From the NCBI RefSeq assembly GCF_053078305.1, contig NZ_CP166879.1: DNA of 64,000 nt; one strand, written 5' to 3'. Shown in pieces: positions 21,783-57,946 of this stretch (its first letter is position 1; every line of letters starts with the position of its first letter). The notes below the pieces were generated by a model. That model was not told where the DNA came from and ran no database searches. It was given only the letters and a program-made list of their open reading frames with translations. The translations under genes were made by a program, and so were the position numbers.

Positions 21783-22364
21783 TTAACCAAAAATTTCCAC
21801 AAGATGCTTGCGATATTCTTCAGTATAGCGGGGAACATCAGGCATTTTTATCACGTCATTAGCGATAAATGTCGGCAGCGGTTCCATGCCAAGGAATTGG
21901 TTTGCTTTATGGAACGGCAGATACACACCGTCGACGCCAACGCCGTGGAAGAATTGATCTTTTTCGGTGAAGGCTTCCATTGGTGCGTTCCAGGTCAGAG
22001 AAAGCATATATTTTTTGCCCTGTACCAGGCCGCCGGAACCGTATTTTTTCGACGGATCTTTGCGGGTACGACCATCGCTGGCATACAGCGTCCCGTGACC
22101 TTCGGTGAATACATCATCAATGTATTTTTTCACTGTCCACGGCGCGCCCATCCACCAGCCTGGCATCTGCCAGATCACCACATCAGCCCAGAGAAAGTTT
22201 TGTACTTCCGCTTTGACATCGTAGTCGCTGTCGGCGCGAACGATGCGAACATCATGCCCGAGGTCGCGCAGTGTGCCATCCGCGACTTCGGTCAGGGTGT
22301 CGTTCAGTTGACCATTGGAGTGGGCGAATTTTTTCGCGCCGTTGATAATCAGGATGTTGCTCAT
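21783..22364 (-). CDS. mdaB: NADPH:quinone oxidoreductase MdaB
   Basis: 193 aa flavodoxin-like protein (MSNILIINGAKKFAHSNGQLN...); recognised. Confidence 0.9.
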   Translation of the reverse strand: MSNILIINGAKKFAHSNGQLNDTLTEVADGTLRDLGHDVRIVRADSDYDVKAEVQNFLWADVVIWQMPGWWMGAPWTVKKYIDDVFTEGHGTLYASDGRTRKDPSKKYGSGGLVQGKKYMLSLTWNAPMEAFTEKDQFFHGVGVDGVYLPFHKANQFLGMEPLPTFIANDVIKMPDVPRYTEEYRKHLVEIFG

Positions 22365-22473
22365 TTTTTAACCTCAAGGTGAGACGTTTGCCGACTATAG
22401 TACGTCACAGAGCGGTACGGTGAAATTAGCAAAATGTGCAAAGTCTTTTGCGAATTTAGCAAAAGTCTTACCC

Positions 22474-23823
22474 TTACCAGCTTACCTTCGCCTCAAATCC
22501 ACCTTGTTCCGCATTCCCAAACTCAACATTCATGCCATGCAGCTTGGCGATTCGCTGGACAATCGATAGCCCAAGTCCACTGCCGGTAGCGGTTTGTCCG
22601 GGTGGGCGATAGAAGCGTTCGCCAATTCGCGCTAGTGCCTCTGGCGTCACACCGGGGCCGTTATCCCTCACGATGAAATTATCGGCATTCAGCGTGACGT
22701 CTACCACGCTGCCCTGTGGACTGTAGCGCACGGCGTTATCCAGCAAATTTCGCACCAACAAACTTAGCAATAGCGGTTGCCCGGTGCGTTTGATGCTGTG
22801 GGCATTGAGTGTCAGTCGCACGTCAATTTTCGCCTGCTGCGCCGTGTGGTAAATATCCATCACCGACGATTGCAGGAGATCTTCAAGCGGGATCTCCGCG
22901 ACGTCCTGAAGGTTATCCAGTGAGTCCAGCCGCGATAGCGTGAGCAGTTGATCAACCAGACGAGTAGCGCGATCGATCCCGTAATGTAATTGAAGCAGTG
23001 CTTTTTTCCGCGCCTGCGGATCATCGTCAGAGAGCTGCGCAACTTCGGTTTGCACTTTCAGCGCCGTTAACGGGCTACGAAGTTCGTGAGCTGCGTCGGA
23101 GGTAAAGCGTCGTTCACGAACCATCATCGCATGTGTGCGGGCGAACAGTTGATTTAGCGACTCAACCAGTGGTCGCACTTCGCTGGGTACGCCAGTCGCG
23201 TTTAGTGGTTTTTCCGAGTCAGGGTCACGCATACGTAGTGCCAGCGCCAGTTTGTTCAGCGGCGCGAGTTCACGACCCAGTAGTACCATCATGATGATTA
23301 ACATAATCGGCAGTGCGACCAACCACGGGATCAATTGCCCGGCAACAATCGCCAGCGCCATGTCTTCACGGTATTCCCATTCCTGACCAACAACGATGCG
23401 ATATTTGCCATCAGGTGAGGTCATCCAGACAAAACGCCATTGATCTTTATCGCCCACCAGTTGCCCGTCAGCAAAACCTTCCCGTTGATAGCTATAGGGA
23501 ATATCTTCTCCGTTATCGCCATCGTTAAGGACCATTCTGCCGTCGTGGGTAAAGATGGCAAAGGTCAGCGCATCGTCATCAACATGACCGTGTTTTAATT
23601 TATTTGGCGTCTGTGCCATGCGATCCGCCGCGTTGATTTCGTTGAGATCGAGCGTACTTAACCGCTTGGCAAACAGCATCAGTTGGGTGTCGAACAACTC
23701 ATCGACGTTATCCGTTGTTTGTTTCCAGGCGACAAAGCTGGAAAGCAGCCAGGTCACCGAGGCCAGAATTAAAAAGATTAGCGTCAGCCTGACGCGCAGA
23801 CTAAGACGTTGGGTAAATTTCAT
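22474..23823 (-). CDS. qseC: Two-component sensor histidine kinase QseC
   Basis: 449 aa; two TM segments, H-box [12 protein letters not shown] and ATP-binding G-boxes; overlaps the qseB stop. Confidence 0.9.
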
Positions 23824-24479
23824 TTCTCACCTAATGTGTAGCCAATACCATGCACGGTACGAATAAAATCACTACCGAGTTTGCGTCGCAGATGATGCAC
23901 ATGCACTTCAACGGCATTACTGGTGACATCTTCGTCCCAGGTATACAGTTTCTCTTCAATCAGTTTGCGCGGCAGTACCCGACCAGCGTTACGCATCAGT
24001 AATTCCAGCAGGGCAAATTCTTTTGGTTTCAGCGTTAAGGGTTCGCCAGCCAGCGTGGCGATACGTTTGCCGGGGTCGAGCATGACGTTCCCGTGGCGCA
24101 GTTCGTTGCTGGCCTGGCCGTTGGTTCGGCGCATCAGTGCTTCCAGCCTGGCGGCGACTTCTATCAACGCAAAAGGTTTACACAGATAATCGTCAGCTCC
24201 CAGACGCAGCCCCTCTACACGTTCCGCCAGCGCATCGCGCGCGGTCAGGATCAGTACCGGCTCACGCTGACCTTTTTCTCGCCATTCGCGCAAAATATCG
24301 CGACCATCCATGCCTGGTAAGGTTAAATCCAGGATCACCGCATCATAAGGCGCGCTATAAAGCGCCTCTTTTCCCTGACGACCTTGTGTAAACCAGTCGA
24401 CGCTAAAACCCATTTTACTAAGGCCCGTTTTGATGCCGTCGCCAATCAGCATGTCATCTTCTATCAGTAAAATTCGCAT
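23820..24479 (-). CDS. qseB: Two-component response regulator QseB (OmpR family)
   Basis: 219 aa; receiver motifs ([18 protein letters not shown]) and winged-helix C-terminus. Confidence 0.9.
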
Positions 24480-24630: not shown

Positions 24631-25023
24631 ATGAAAAAATTCGCAGCAGTAATCGCAGTAATGGCCCTGTGCAGTGCACCGGTGATGGCAGCAGAGCAGG
24701 GCGGTTTTTCTGGCCCATCGGCAACGCAAAGTCAGGCTGGAGGATTCCAGGGGCCGAACGGCAGCGTAACGACTGTAGAAAGCGCAAAATCCCTGCGTGA
24801 CGACACCTGGGTAACCCTGCGCGGCAATATCGTTGAACGCATCTCTGACGATCTCTACGTGTTCAAAGATGCCAGCGGTACTATCAATGTTGATATCGAT
24901 CACAAACGCTGGAACGGCGTGACGGTGACGCCGAAAGATACGGTTGAGATTCAGGGTGAAGTCGATAAAGACTGGAATTCTGTTGAAATTGACGTCAAAC
25001 AGATCCGCAAAGTAAATCCGTAA
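24631..25023 (+). CDS. ygiW: Periplasmic BOF/OB-fold stress protein YgiW (VisP)
   Basis: ORF track 24574..25023; ATG 24631 with SD aaaggga gives signal peptide MKKFAAVIAVMALCSAPVMA, 130 aa. Confidence 0.85.
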   Translation: MKKFAAVIAVMALCSAPVMAAEQGGFSGPSATQSQAGGFQGPNGSVTTVESAKSLRDDTWVTLRGNIVERISDDLYVFKDASGTINVDIDHKRWNGVTVTPKDTVEIQGEVDKDWNSVEIDVKQIRKVNP

Positions 25024-25032
25024 TTGTTACCG

Positions 25033-25055
25033 CTCCCGGGATGCGTTCCCGGGAA
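25033..25055 (+). terminator. Hairpin after ygiW (possible terminator)
   Basis: cccggg-atgcgtt-cccggg stem-loop; weak T tract. Confidence 0.35.
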
Positions 25056-25075
25056 TAATTTCGCAGGGAGGCAAC

Positions 25076-25558
25076 ATGACAAACCTGACACTGGATGTAA
25101 ACATTATCGATTTCCCATCAATCCCTGTGGCGATGTTGCCGCACCGCTATAGCCCTGAGTTGCTCAACTACAGCGTGGCGAAATTTATCATGTGGCGTAA
25201 AGAGACGGGGCTTTCTCCTGTTAACCAAAGCCAGACTTTTGGCGTCGCCTGGGACGACCCTGCCACCACCGCACCGGAAGCGTTTCGCTTTGATATCTGC
25301 GGCAGCGTTAGCGAACCGATTCCCGATAATCGTTATGGTGTGAGCAATGGTGAACTTACCGGTGGACGTTATGCCGTGGCCCGCCACGTTGGCGAGCTGG
25401 ACGATATTTCACACACGATATGGGGCATTATTCGCCACTGGCTGCCTGCAAGCGGCGAGAAAATGCGTAAAGCACCGATTCTGTTTCACTACACCAATCT
25501 TGCCGAAGGGGTGACGGAGCAGCGACTGGAAACGGATGTTTATGTGCCGTTAGCGTGA
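25076..25558 (+). CDS. ygiV: GyrI-like small-molecule-binding domain protein YgiV
   Basis: 160 aa; recognised. Confidence 0.85.
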   Translation: MTNLTLDVNIIDFPSIPVAMLPHRYSPELLNYSVAKFIMWRKETGLSPVNQSQTFGVAWDDPATTAPEAFRFDICGSVSEPIPDNRYGVSNGELTGGRYAVARHVGELDDISHTIWGIIRHWLPASGEKMRKAPILFHYTNLAEGVTEQRLETDVYVPLA

Positions 25559-25666
25559 TGGGGAATCTTTACCGGAGTGTGAGCCAAATCACTCGCGATA
25601 AGTTTGAGCGAACAATGCCACAGGCGTATTGTTGTTGGGCTTATAATTTCTCCGGTAAGGAATACC

Positions 25667-27274
25667 ATGTATACGCGAAATTTATTATGGCTGGTCAGCC
25701 TGGTAAGTGCGGCTCCTCTCTACGCTGCTGACGTTCCCACCAACACACCGCTCGCTCCGCAACAAGTCTTTCGTTACAACAATCATAGCGACCCAGGTAC
25801 GCTCGACCCGCAAAAGGTGGAGGAGAATACTGCCGCGCAGATTGTGCTGGATCTGTTTGAAGGTCTGGTATGGATGGACGGTGAAGGCCAGGTGCAGCCC
25901 GCTCAGGCTGAACGCTGGGAGATAATGGACGGCGGCAGGCGCTATATTTTCCATCTGCGTAGCGGTTTGCAGTGGTCCGACGGTCAGCCTCTGACGGCAG
26001 AGGATTTTGTCCTCGGCTGGCAGCGCGCGGTTGACCCGAAAACGGCAAGCCCTTTTGCTGGCTATCTGGCACAGGCGCACATTAACAATGCCGCGGCTAT
26101 TGTTGCGGGTAAAGCAGATGTTACATCGCTGGGTGTCAAAGCGACGGATGATCGAACTCTTGAAGTTACGCTTGAGCAGCCGGTTCCTTGGTTCACGACG
26201 ATGCTCGCCTGGCCGACGCTCTTCCCGGTTCCTCATCATGTCATCGCTAAACATGGCGATAGCTGGAGTAAGCCAGAGAACATGGTTTACAACGGTGCCT
26301 TTGTGCTTGATCAGTGGGTAGTTAACGAAAAGATTACTGCACGCAAAAATCCAAAGTACCGCGATGCGCAACATACAGTATTGCAACAGGTTGAGTATCT
26401 GGCGCTGGATAATTCGGTCACCGGCTATAACCGCTATCGCGCGGGAGAGGTCGATCTCACCTGGGTTCCGGCGCAGCAAATTCCCGCCATTGAAAAATCA
26501 CTGCCTGGCGAGCTACGAATTATTCCGCGTCTGAACAGCGAATATTACAACTTCAACCTTGAGAAACCGCCATTTAACGATGTGCGAGTGCGTCGGGCGC
26601 TATATCTTACGGTTGATCGACAGCTTATTGCGCAAAAGGTACTGGGGTTGAGGACGCCCGCAACCACGCTGACGCCGCCAGAGGTAAAAGGCTTTAGCGC
26701 GACGACGTTCGATGAACTGCAAAAGCCAATGAGTGAGCGCGTCGCGATGGCAAAAGCCTTGCTGAAACAGGCGGGATACGACGCCTCTCATCCGCTACGC
26801 TTTGAGCTGTTCTACAACAAGTACGATCTGCATGAAAAGACCGCGATAGCGTTGTCTTCCGAATGGAAAAAATGGCTGGGTGCACAGGTGACGCTGCGCA
26901 CAATGGAGTGGAAAACCTATCTTGATGCCCGACGAGCCGGTGATTTCATGCTGTCTCGGCAGTCGTGGGATGCGACGTACAATGATGCTTCCAGCTTCCT
27001 GAACACGCTCAAAAGCGATAGTGAAGAAAACGTCGGTCACTGGAAAAATGCGCAGTATGACGCCTTACTAAACCAGGCCACGCAGATCACTGATGCGACA
27101 AAGCGTAATGCGTTGTATCAGCAGGCAGAAGTGATCATCAACCAACAGGCACCGCTGATTCCTATCTACTATCAGCCGTTAATCAAACTGCTTAAACCCT
27201 ACGTTGGCGGTTTTCCGCTGCATAATCCCCAGGATTATGTCTACAGCAAAGAGTTGTATATCAAGGCACATTGA
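25667..27274 (+). CDS. ygiS: Periplasmic solute-binding protein, family 5 (oligopeptide/DppA-like), YgiS
   Basis: ORF track 25604..27274; ATG 25667 gives signal peptide MYTRNLLWLVSLVSAAPLYA and 535 aa. Confidence 0.85.
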   Translation: MYTRNLLWLVSLVSAAPLYAADVPTNTPLAPQQVFRYNNHSDPGTLDPQKVEENTAAQIVLDLFEGLVWMDGEGQVQPAQAERWEIMDGGRRYIFHLRSGLQWSDGQPLTAEDFVLGWQRAVDPKTASPFAGYLAQAHINNAAAIVAGKADVTSLGVKATDDRTLEVTLEQPVPWFTTMLAWPTLFPVPHHVIAKHGDSWSKPENMVYNGAFVLDQWVVNEKITARKNPKYRDAQHTVLQQVEYLALDNSVTGYNRYRAGEVDLTWVPAQQIPAIEKSLPGELRIIPRLNSEYYNFNLEKPPFNDVRVRRALYLTVDRQLIAQKVLGLRTPATTLTPPEVKGFSATTFDELQKPMSERVAMAKALLKQAGYDASHPLRFELFYNKYDLHEKTAIALSSEWKKWLGAQVTLRTMEWKTYLDARRAGDFMLSRQSWDATYNDASSFLNTLKSDSEENVGHWKNAQYDALLNQATQITDATKRNALYQQAEVIINQQAPLIPIYYQPLIKLLKPYVGGFPLHNPQDYVYSKELYIKAH

Positions 27275-27411: not shown

Positions 27412-29670
27412 ATGAGCGATATGGCAGAGCGCCTTGCGCTACATGAATTTACGGAAAACGCCTACTTAAACTACTCCATGTACGTGATCATGGACCGTGC
27501 GTTGCCGTTTATTGGTGATGGTCTGAAACCTGTTCAGCGCCGCATTGTGTATGCGATGTCTGAACTGGGCCTGAATGCCAGCGCCAAATTTAAAAAATCG
27601 GCCCGTACCGTCGGTGACGTACTGGGTAAATACCATCCGCACGGCGATAGCGCCTGTTATGAAGCGATGGTCCTGATGGCGCAGCCGTTCTCTTACCGTT
27701 ATCCGCTGGTTGATGGTCAGGGGAACTGGGGCGCGCCGGACGATCCGAAATCGTTCGCGGCAATGCGTTACACCGAATCCCGGTTGTCGAAATATTCCGA
27801 GCTGCTATTGAGCGAGTTGGGGCAGGGGACGGCTGACTGGGTGCCAAACTTCGACGGCACTTTGCAGGAGCCGAAAATGCTACCTGCCCGTCTGCCAAAC
27901 ATTTTGCTTAACGGCACCACCGGTATTGCCGTCGGCATGGCGACCGATATTCCACCGCATAACCTGCGTGAAGTGGCTCAGGCGGCAATCGCATTAATCG
28001 ACCAGCCGAAAACCACGCTCGATCAGCTGCTGGATATCGTGCAGGGGCCGGATTATCCGACTGAAGCGGAAATTATCACTTCGCGCGCCGAGATCCGTAA
28101 AATCTACGAGAACGGACGTGGTTCAGTGCGTATGCGCGCGGTGTGGAAGAAAGAAGATGGCGCGGTGGTTATCAGCGCATTGCCGCATCAGGTTTCAGGT
28201 GCGCGCGTACTGGAGCAAATTGCTGCGCAAATGCGCAACAAAAAGCTGCCGATGGTTGACGATCTGCGCGATGAATCTGACCACGAGAACCCGACCCGTC
28301 TGGTGATTGTGCCGCGTTCCAACCGCGTGGATATGGATCAGGTGATGAACCACCTCTTCGCTACCACCGATCTGGAAAAGAGCTATCGTATTAACCTTAA
28401 TATGATCGGTCTGGATGGTCGTCCGGCGGTGAAAAACCTGCTGGAAATCCTCTCCGAATGGCTGGTGTTCCGCCGCGATACTGTGCGCCGCCGACTGAAC
28501 TATCGTCTGGAGAAAGTCCTCAAGCGCCTGCATATCCTCGAAGGTTTGCTGGTGGCGTTTCTCAATATCGACGAAGTGATTGAGATCATTCGTAATGAAG
28601 ATGAACCGAAACCGGCGCTGATGTCGCGGTTTGGCCTTACGGAAACCCAGGCGGAAGCGATCCTCGAACTGAAACTGCGTCATCTTGCCAAACTGGAAGA
28701 GATGAAGATTCGCGGTGAGCAGAGTGAGCTGGAAAAAGAGCGCGACCAGTTGCAGGGCATTTTGGCTTCCGAGCGTAAAATGAATAACCTGCTGAAGAAA
28801 GAACTGCAGGCAGACGCGCAAGCCTACGGTGACGATCGTCGTTCGCCGTTGCAGGAACGCGAAGAAGCGAAAGCGATGAGCGAGCACGACATGCTGCCGT
28901 CTGAACCTGTCACCATTGTGCTGTCGCAGATGGGCTGGGTACGCAGCGCTAAAGGCCATGATATCGACGCGCCGGGCCTGAATTATAAAGCGGGTGATAG
29001 CTTCAAAGCGGCGGTGAAAGGTAAGAGCAACCAACCGGTAGTGTTTGTTGATTCCACCGGTCGTAGCTATGCCATCGACCCGATTACGCTGCCGTCGGCG
29101 CGTGGTCAGGGCGAACCGCTCACCGGCAAATTAACGTTGCCGCCTGGGGCGACCGTTGACCATATGCTGATGGAAAGCGACGATCAGAAACTGCTGATGG
29201 CTTCCGATGCGGGTTACGGTTTCGTCTGCACCTTTAACGATCTGGTGGCGCGTAACCGTGCAGGTAAGGCTTTGATCACCTTACCGGAAAATGCCCATGT
29301 TATGCCGCCGGTGGTGATTGAAGATGCTTCCGATATGCTGCTGGCAATCACTCAGGCAGGCCGTATGTTGATGTTCCCGGTAAGTGATCTGCCGCAGCTG
29401 TCGAAGGGCAAAGGCAACAAGATTATCAACATTCCATCGGCAGAAGCCGCGCGTGGCGAGGATGGTCTGGCGCAACTGTACGTTCTGCCGCCGCAAAGCA
29501 CGCTGACCATTCATGTTGGGAAACGCAAAATTAAACTGCGTCCGGAAGAGCTACAGAAAGTCACTGGCGAACGTGGACGCCGCGGTACGTTGATGCGCGG
29601 TTTGCAGCGTATCGATCGTGTTGAGATCGACTCTCCTCGCCGTGCCAGCAGCGGTGATAGCGAAGAGTAA
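27412..29670 (+). CDS. parC: DNA topoisomerase IV subunit A
   Basis: 752 aa; GyrA-like N-terminus with active-site tyrosine context AAMRYTE; recognised. Confidence 0.95.
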
Positions 29671-29903: not shown

Positions 29904-30641
29904 ATGCTATATATCTTTCGTCTTATTATTACCGTGATTTACAGCATCTTAGTCTGTGTATTCGGCTCCATTTACTGCCTTTTCAGCCCGCGTAACCCGA
30001 AACATGTGGCCACCTTTGGGCATATGTTTGGTCGTCTTGCGCCGCTGTTCGGCCTGAAAGTTGAGTGCCGCAAACCTGCAGATGCTGAAAGCTACGGCAA
30101 TGCTATCTATATCGCTAACCACCAGAACAACTATGACATGGTGACAGCATCGAACATTGTGCAACCGCCGACGGTGACGGTAGGTAAAAAGAGCTTGCTG
30201 TGGATCCCCTTCTTCGGGCAGTTGTACTGGTTAACCGGCAACTTATTGATCGACAGAAACAATCGCACTAAAGCTCACGGCACTATTGCGGAAGTAGTGA
30301 ATCATTTCAAAAAACGCCGTATTTCCATTTGGATGTTCCCGGAAGGTACCCGCAGCCGTGGTCGCGGCCTGCTACCGTTCAAGACCGGGGCATTTCACGC
30401 GGCAATTGCGGCGGGCGTCCCGATTATTCCCGTGTGCGTCTCTACAACTTCGAATAAGATTAATCTTAATCGACTGCACAACGGTCTGGTGATTGTCGAA
30501 ATGCTGCCGCCAATTGACGTCAGTCAGTATGGCAAAGATCAGGTTCGTGAGCTGGCTGCCCATTGTCGTTCGATAATGGAACAAAAAATCGCCGAGCTCG
30601 ATAAAGAAGTCGCAGAGCGCGAAGCCGCCGGAAAAGTTTAA
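29904..30641 (+). CDS. plsC: 1-acyl-sn-glycerol-3-phosphate acyltransferase
   Basis: 245 aa; HX4D acyltransferase motif (NHQNNYD) and FPEGTRS motif. Confidence 0.9.
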   Translation: MLYIFRLIITVIYSILVCVFGSIYCLFSPRNPKHVATFGHMFGRLAPLFGLKVECRKPADAESYGNAIYIANHQNNYDMVTASNIVQPPTVTVGKKSLLWIPFFGQLYWLTGNLLIDRNNRTKAHGTIAEVVNHFKKRRISIWMFPEGTRSRGRGLLPFKTGAFHAAIAAGVPIIPVCVSTTSNKINLNRLHNGLVIVEMLPPIDVSQYGKDQVRELAAHCRSIMEQKIAELDKEVAEREAAGKV

Positions 30642-56208: not shown

Positions 56209-56446
56209 TAATCAAATATTCAATATTTATATATTCAAATATTTATTCATTTCATATGTGAATACATTAACCAGCAGAATGCCTGTGTTCTAATTATTTC
56301 TAAAGATTTTTAATGAATGCTTATTGTCTGATACACAAGAAATAACACTCTTTTTATCGTTAAAAAATGATATTTCACTTTGCCCACACCGTTAAAGTCA
56401 CTGATAATGCGTCCGTTCGTAAATTCAAAATGGCGTAATCTAATAT

Positions 56447-57946
56447 ATGCTAAATTTATTTGTTGGCCTTGATATATACACAGGGCTTTTGTTATTACTT
56501 GCTCTGGCATTTGTGTTGTTCTACGAAGCAATCAATGGTTTTCATGACACGGCGAATGCGGTGGCAACCGTTATTTATACTCGTGCCATGCAGCCACAGC
56601 TTGCCGTGGTGATGGCGGCATTTTTTAACTTTTTTGGCGTGTTATTGGGCGGACTTAGCGTTGCCTATGCCATTGTCCATATGTTGCCAACCGATTTGTT
56701 GCTGAATATGGGGTCAACCCACGGCCTGGCGATGGTCTTTTCCATGCTGCTGGCGGCGATTATCTGGAACCTGGGAACGTGGTTCTTTGGTTTACCGGCC
56801 TCCAGTTCGCATACCTTGATTGGCGCGATTATCGGCATCGGTTTAACCAACGCGCTGTTAACCGGCTCATCGGTGATGGATGCGTTAAACCTGCGTGAAG
56901 TGACCAAAATTTTCTCCTCGCTGATTGTTTCCCCTATCGTCGGCCTGGTCATTGCGGGAGGCCTGATATTCCTGCTGCGACGCTACTGGAGCGGAACGAA
57001 AAAGCGTGACCGTATTCACCGCATTCCGGAAGATCGCAAAAAGAAAAAAGGCAAACGTAAGCCGCCATTCTGGACGCGTATTGCGCTGATTGTTTCCGCT
57101 GCGGGCGTGGCGTTTTCGCACGGCGCGAACGACGGACAAAAAGGGATCGGCCTGGTGATGCTGGTACTGGTGGGGATTGCCCCTGCTGGCTTCGTCGTCA
57201 ATATGAACGCGTCCGGCTATGAAATTACCCGTACCCGCGATGCCGTTACCAACTTCGAACACTACCTGCAACAGCATCCTGAACTGCCGCAGAAGTTGAT
57301 TACGATGGAACCTCCATTGCCTGCGGCATCTACTGATGGCGCGCAAGTGACGGAGTTTCACTGTCATCCGGCAAATACCTTTGATGCGATTGCGCGCGTT
57401 AAAACGATGCTGCCAGGCAATATGGAAAGTTACGAGCCGTTAAGCGTGAGTCAGCGCAGCCAGCTGCGCCGCATTATGCTGTGCATCTCTGATACCTCCG
57501 CGAAGCTGGCGAAACTGCCAGGCGTCAGTAAAGAAGACCAGAACCTGCTGAAAAAACTTCGCAGCGATATGTTAAGCACCATTGAGTACGCTCCGGTGTG
57601 GATCATCATGGCGGTAGCACTGGCGCTCGGCATTGGCACCATGATTGGCTGGCGTCGTGTAGCGATGACCATCGGTGAGAAGATTGGTAAGCGCGGCATG
57701 ACGTATGCGCAAGGCATGGCGGCACAAATGACGGCGGCAGTGTCTATCGGTCTTGCCAGTTATATTGGGATGCCCGTCTCCACAACACACGTCCTCTCGT
57801 CTGCAGTTGCAGGGACGATGGTGGTGGACGGCGGTGGGTTACAGCGTAAAACGGTAACCAGCATCCTGATGGCATGGGTGTTTACTTTACCGGCGGCAAT
57901 TTTTCTTTCTGGTGGGCTGTACTGGATAGCATTGCAGTTGATTTAA
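56447..57946 (+). CDS. pitB: Low-affinity inorganic phosphate transporter PitB
   Basis: 499 aa; [39 protein letters not shown]... PiT family. Confidence 0.9.

Follow-up and report, generated by a model that had tools for sequence, protein, structure and literature searches.

Toxin-antitoxin loci as variable cassettes of Escherichia coli

Toxin-antitoxin systems belong to the accessory genome of E. coli, and no such system is common to MG1655, W, EDL933 and UTI89 (PMC7167474, Fig. 1B legend). The same paper cites Fiedoruk 2015 and Ramisetty & Santhosh 2016 on toxin-antitoxin content that differs between E. coli phylogroups, and describes the integration mechanism of chromosomal toxin-antitoxin cassettes as still unknown in general. 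Empty sites are known from UTI89, such as relA-mazG without mazEF and dinB-yafP without yafNO (PMC7167474). Besides, the adherent-invasive E. coli strains NRG857c and LF82 reportedly have no MqsRA (PMC7232551, PMC11205521). Both variable toxin-antitoxin content and E. coli strains without mqsRA are already published.

The work on MqsR and MqsA in K-12 concerns the control of GhoT/GhoS, the cleavage of ygiS mRNA and persistence. The mqsRA locus of K-12, ygiU-ygiT (b3022-b3021), is a type II toxin-antitoxin locus. Here we analysed a 64-kb stretch of DNA (the window) in which ygiV and ygiS stand next to each other, and we estimate at about 90% the probability that the interval between them has kept the ancestral state, never occupied, of the site that received mqsRA in K-12-type E. 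coli.

The site resembles the empty sites of UTI89 in that a K-12 cassette is absent from other phylogroups while the neighbours are adjacent and apparently functional. It differs from them in two respects: five outgroup lineages allowed a direct test of its polarity, and the insertion point falls at the 5' base of a predicted hairpin. Like NRG857c and LF82, which have no MqsRA homologue, the window is among the 58% of genomes without the cassette, but over 24 kb its best matches are in the O55:H7/O157:H7 group (99.0-99.2%) and not those adherent-invasive strains.

The ygiV-ygiS interval of the window

The window is a segment of an E. coli chromosome; its gene order was read from the ORF list and agrees with the RefSeq annotation and the Pfam domains. 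According to the ORF list, mdaB (21783-22364), qseC (22474-23823) and qseB (23820-24479) lie on the minus strand, while ygiW (24631-25023), ygiV, ygiS, parC (27412-29670) and plsC (29904-30641) lie on the plus strand. The upstream neighbour ygiW is annotated in RefSeq as an OB-fold stress tolerance protein. The left flank of the site is ygiV (25076-25558), a 160-aa ORF annotated in RefSeq as an AraC-family regulator, whose product has a GyrI-like domain (Pfam, E = 4.9e-37). The right flank is an intact ygiS (25667-27274), which encodes the periplasmic substrate-binding protein of an ABC transporter (Pfam SBP_bac_5, E = 1.4e-84; RefSeq). These flanking genes were named in two ways, from the RefSeq annotation of DNA that is 99.5% identical and from their Pfam domains.

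The preliminary description of this DNA let ygiV end at 25558 and ygiS start at 25667, with a spacer of 108 bp that has no gene, and these coordinates turned out to be exact when compared with the sequence and the ORF list. In the base-by-base check, the stop codon TGA of ygiV occupies 25556-25558 and the ATG of ygiS 25667-25669. The ygiS frame is also open upstream to a TTG at 25604, which gives a 556-aa ORF in the mechanical ORF list (additional part 25604-25666); the RefSeq start is the ATG at 25667 (535 aa), with a Shine-Dalgarno sequence AAGGA 5 nt upstream.

Over 24 kb, the nearest relatives of the window are D8 and TUM13936 (99.2%), followed by the O55:H7/O157:H7 group (99.0%). All of them are co-linear with the window over this distance, so the empty allele is common to all.

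We searched the 64-kb window for both proteins of the pair and for remnants of their locus. The best tblastn match of the K-12 MqsR toxin (MqsR_toxin, PF15723) had E = 1.5 over 7 residues, and that of the MqsA antitoxin (PF15731, zinc ribbon and helix-turn-helix) had E = 0.8. The operator palindrome ACCTTTTAGGT had 0 matches in the window with at most one mismatch permitted. Two small ORFs overlap the spacer, neither with a Pfam match; the positive controls from K-12 were recovered by Pfam with E = 5.5e-35 for MqsR and E = 7.2e-56 for MqsA. A sensitive blastn search for a cassette remnant (word size 7) matched only the 101 bp that both alleles share. Rfam gave no match (E <= 1) on 25000-26000, sigma-70 promoters in the spacer numbered 0 at the threshold of the tool, and the terminator scan of the spacer gave a single weak terminator-like site where chance alone would give 0.5. 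The window has no MqsR or MqsA gene at the ygiV-ygiS locus. The observation in the preliminary description, that mqsRA is missing from this interval, is confirmed by the tblastn, operator and Pfam results, and its interpretation is supported, with one correction that concerns loss and another that concerns phenotype (see below).

Comparison of the empty junction with the K-12-type allele

The position of mqsR and mqsA between ygiV and ygiS in K-12, as stated in the preliminary description, is seen in the K-12-type genome (L001), where a ygiV-ygiS interval of 1,030 bp accommodates mqsR (297 bp) and mqsA (396 bp). We aligned the alleles of the window, the K-12 type, O157:H7 TR01 and CRE1540. The sequence GTGATG-GGGAA-TCTTTACC is common to the window, O157:H7 TR01 and CRE1540, and the K-12 type reads GTGATG-[927 bp]-TCTTTACC. 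Spaced around the stop codon of ygiV, the empty allele is GCG TGA TG-GGGAA-TCTTTACCGG and the K-12 type is GCG TGA TG-[927 bp]-TCTTTACCGG. The window has 5 bp, GGGAA, where K-12 has a cassette of 927 bp.

In the aligned sequences, the whole spacer (25559-25666) is the unoccupied mqsRA site. Its GGGAA (25561-25565) marks the insertion point and has no counterpart in K-12-type genomes, and its right-hand 101 bp (25566-25666, plus strand), the presumed ygiS leader, are identical in 101 of 101 positions (blastn) to the K-12 stretch between the mqsA terminator and ygiS. The two loci have the same 101 bp upstream of ygiS and the same neighbourhood, qseBC-ygiW-ygiV...ygiS-parC-plsC; they differ in that the window lacks the 927-bp cassette with its promoter and two ACCTTTTAGGT operators, mqsR, mqsA and terminator.

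The cassette (L001 2161-3087) starts 2 bp past the ygiV stop and replaces GGGAA. Its GC content is 41.1% (mqsR 40.1%, mqsA 42.2%), whereas ygiV and ygiS have 52-53% and the window as a whole has 51.1%. It is self-contained, with its own promoter, operators and terminator, and encodes only mqsR and mqsA. The operator palindrome of MqsA follows the pattern ACCT-N3-AGGT and is present in two copies in the K-12-type locus, both inside the cassette as TAACCTTTTAGGT (repeat family D2), and the 3' end of the cassette is a terminator-like palindrome, AAAAGCG-N-CGCTTTTT.

No repeat pair brackets the cassette ends at L001 2161 and 3087, and we found no target-site duplication, terminal inverted repeats or recombinase gene, so it is from polarity only that we infer an insertion. 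A transposon-like or site-specific element was considered for the K-12 cassette and rejected, as there are no bracketing repeats or recombinase and GGGAA is replaced rather than duplicated.

Frequency of the two alleles among complete genomes

The mqsRA segment was found in 42% of the complete E. coli genomes (2,299 of 5,426). It occupies 2,313 places, all of them chromosomal, and the median number per genome is one; 2,296 copies are at least 99% identical. The intact empty junction, counted with a 141-bp query spanning the junction at a coverage of at least 80%, was found in 58% (3,123 of 5,426). Together, the mqsRA carriers and the genomes with an intact junction number 5,422, which makes the two groups all but complementary. 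In E. coli the empty allele is the commoner one, and the suggestion in the preliminary description that the locus varies between lineages is borne out, mqsRA being present in 42% of the complete genomes and absent in 58%.

The same junction query matched 7,720 places in 5,423 records, which leaves 2,297 split junctions. This number is nearly that of the carriers (2,299), indicating that mqsRA is essentially confined to the ygiV-ygiS locus. The figure bears on the idea that mqsRA or a divergent homologue was relocated and lies beyond the 64-kb window, either on a plasmid or elsewhere in the genome. The sequence read is 64 kb of a genome, and mqsR does occur on one E. coli plasmid, with MqsR-family toxins on plasmids of other Proteobacteria, which would leave room for such a copy. 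However, all of the 2,313 mqsRA places are chromosomal and none lies on the plasmids of those assemblies, split junctions are about as numerous as carriers, the MqsR sequences of 950 E. coli genomes fall into one group (PMC10790755), and the phage collection has no match. We regard a relocated copy as extremely unlikely, and the whole source genome is very likely free of mqsRA.

The plasmid in question is the 354-kb NZ_MG591698.1 (PLSDB), where positions 56244-56537 (hit H127) encode an MqsR with 99% amino-acid identity; the K-12-type gene is thus carried by a plasmid on occasion. Another hit in the plasmid collection (H126) is a record of 4.9 Mb, evidently a chromosome filed as a plasmid.

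The difference at ygiV-ygiS is one of presence or absence, for which chance is not the relevant test, and the junction is identical in 3,123 complete genomes. These genomes were assembled independently and the coordinates in the window were checked base by base, so the chance that the short interval is an artefact of assembly collapse or of a mis-read coordinate is close to nil.

The finding of an empty site is correct but ordinary, because this is the state common to about 58% of complete genomes and to sister Escherichia species. It has little import beyond strain typing, and is useful when K-12 results on MqsR and MqsA are extended to other lineages: as 58% of E. coli have no cassette, the K-12 MqsR/MqsA circuits cannot operate there, and if the source genome is wholly without mqsRA, the MqsR-dependent effects known from K-12 are impossible in the source strain. 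The source strain makes no MqsR RNase and no MqsA repressor from the ygiV-ygiS locus, and very probably from nowhere else. The weight that the preliminary description gave to the locus for persistence and biofilm rests on a contested literature, in which an isogenic mqsRA deletion left the biofilm, oxidative-stress and bile-salt phenotypes unchanged (PMC6918082).

Polarity of the site and origin of the cassette

To compare the locus beyond E. coli, we scanned with YgiV, using one genome per species. Five non-coli loci were obtained, with none from E. fergusonii, Shigella, Salmonella or other genera, and the polarity rests on these five lineages, which are E. albertii, E. whittamii, Escherichia sp. 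MOD1-EC7003, Escherichia sp. E1V33 and strain SCPM-O-B-8794 (YgiV 94% identical). In all five loci, ygiS or what remains of it comes directly after qseB-ygiW-ygiV and precedes parC, and no MqsR or MqsA match was found in them. The junction motif TGA-N-GGG(G)A(A)TCTTT is kept in 5 of 5 lineages, with a spacer of about 110 bp or a ygiS remnant. For example, the junction is GTGACGGGAATCTTTTAC in E. albertii and GTGAAGGGGATCTTTTCC in E. whittamii, compared with GTGATGGGGAATCTTTAC in the window. Within E. coli, the most divergent empty alleles sampled are 94-96% identical over the junction query, and divergent empty alleles (400625, S65EC and CUVET20-PYO4) have the junction exactly as in the window.

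As judged from these sequences, the empty site is probably ancestral to the genus as sampled. The empty junction is common to the outgroup Escherichia, so the allele that bears mqsRA would be the derived one and the state of the window not a deletion. The preliminary description was right that the pair is absent from this locus, and this absence is probably not a loss.

Secondary loss would mean that the source lineage once had mqsRA and then lost it by deletion or by recombinational replacement with an empty allele. There are precedents for such an event, since toxin-antitoxin loci in E. coli can decay or vanish (the decay of ccdO157 is cited in PMC7167474), and the neighbouring ygiS has been deleted or pseudogenised repeatedly, which marks the region as prone to loss. 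Recombination between the alleles is also feasible with flanks that are 98.9% identical to K-12-type genomes; homologous recombination can shift either allele between lineages, and a gain followed by replacement back to the empty state may have taken place in the source strain. Nevertheless, GGGAA is absent from K-12-type genomes and a simple deletion of the cassette could not recreate it, the identical junction occurs in 5 of 5 outgroup lineages and in every empty-site E. coli sampled, the most divergent alleles among them, the window shows neither a remnant nor a scar of mqsRA, and the closest relatives of the window (O55:H7, O157:H7, D8 and TUM13936) share the empty allele. All in all, we consider secondary loss very unlikely.

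If the site was never occupied in the source lineage, the course of events can be proposed as follows. The K-12-type allele would have arisen when a low-GC segment of 927 bp was acquired 2 bp past the ygiV stop and GGGAA was replaced. The source strain would never have received this cassette, which would leave only the conserved 108-bp ygiS leader between ygiV and ygiS. The cassette is at least 99% uniform compared with 95-99% for its flanks, a pattern that fits a single, fairly recent acquisition, and a single insertion may then have spread.

The composition of the cassette and its plasmid-borne homologues point to a horizontal origin. MqsR-family toxins with 60-68% amino-acid identity are found on plasmids of Rahnella, Rouxiella, Burkholderia, Pectobacterium and others, which is consistent with a horizontal origin without identifying the donor; no MqsR-family toxin was found in the phage collection. 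The polarity adds one clean example of chromosomal toxin-antitoxin modules as accessory, horizontally acquired cassettes (PMC7167474).

Predicted hairpin in the ygiS leader

The only mildly novel thread in this locus is a conserved hairpin predicted over the ribosome-binding site of ygiS. Its 5' arm is TCTTTACCGGAG (25566-25577, plus strand), seen as inverted repeat I4 in the K-12-type locus and in the RNA fold and consensus fold. The 3' arm is CTCCGGTAAGGA (25650-25661, plus strand), seen as an inverted repeat and in the same two folds, and includes the ygiS Shine-Dalgarno AAGGA at 25657-25661. In the RNA fold of the spacer (25566-25661), the predicted energy is -42.5 kcal/mol (z = -4.32), and 0 of 200 shuffled sequences were as stable. 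The predicted outer stem of 12 bp pairs 25566-25577 with 25650-25661 and covers the Shine-Dalgarno. In K-12, the mqsRA cassette abuts the 5' base of this predicted stem. Between E. coli and E. albertii the spacer hardly varies (9 sequences), and across Escherichia it is too conserved for covariation to be scored, with 0 compensatory pairs among 5 sequences.

Where the cassette and its terminator are missing, only the conserved leader, with no convincing terminator or consensus promoter, separates ygiV from ygiS, and the two genes may be co-transcribed. It has been proposed that earlier effects ascribed to ygiS may stem from polar or read-through effects on ygiS transcription (PMC6918082). The predicted pairing of TCTTTACCGGAG with the ygiS Shine-Dalgarno could belong to a cis-regulatory leader, so far undescribed, which would govern the translation of ygiS and possibly couple it to read-through from ygiV, in which case the K-12 cassette with its terminator would have rewired ygiS expression. 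This reading, which comes from folding predictions, seems unlikely as it stands; if it were true, it would help to account for the disagreement between reports on mqsRA, ygiS and bile-salt sensitivity.

Variation of ygiS and ygiZ near the site

In the window ygiS is intact (25667-27274), but not in all of the genomes compared. The gene has an internal stop in O157:H7 TR01 (L003 3768-5375), and independent internal deletions are seen in Escherichia sp. MOD1-EC7003 (L004 4553-4922) and Escherichia sp. E1V33 (L006 3713-4140). Thus, ygiS appears to be decaying repeatedly across the genus.

In 1,354 of the 5,426 E. coli genomes, such as CRE1540, 1,544 bp of ygiS (window 25689-27232) are replaced with a filler of 236 bp (L002 5789-6024), and these 1,354 genomes are also without mqsRA. 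The filler has no Rfam match (E <= 1) and occurs nowhere else in E. coli genomes. Given its presence at a single locus and the lack of an Rfam match, the idea that it is a repeated mobile element or derives from a group II intron has no support.

Besides, ygiZ (DUF2645; AT-rich, about 590 bp in CRE1540) is missing from the mdaB-qseC spacer of the window (22365-22473). It is also absent from O157:H7 TR01, E. albertii and the outgroup loci L004 and L005, and is present in CRE1540 and E. whittamii, which makes it a second small segment of variable presence, 3 kb away from the mqsRA site.
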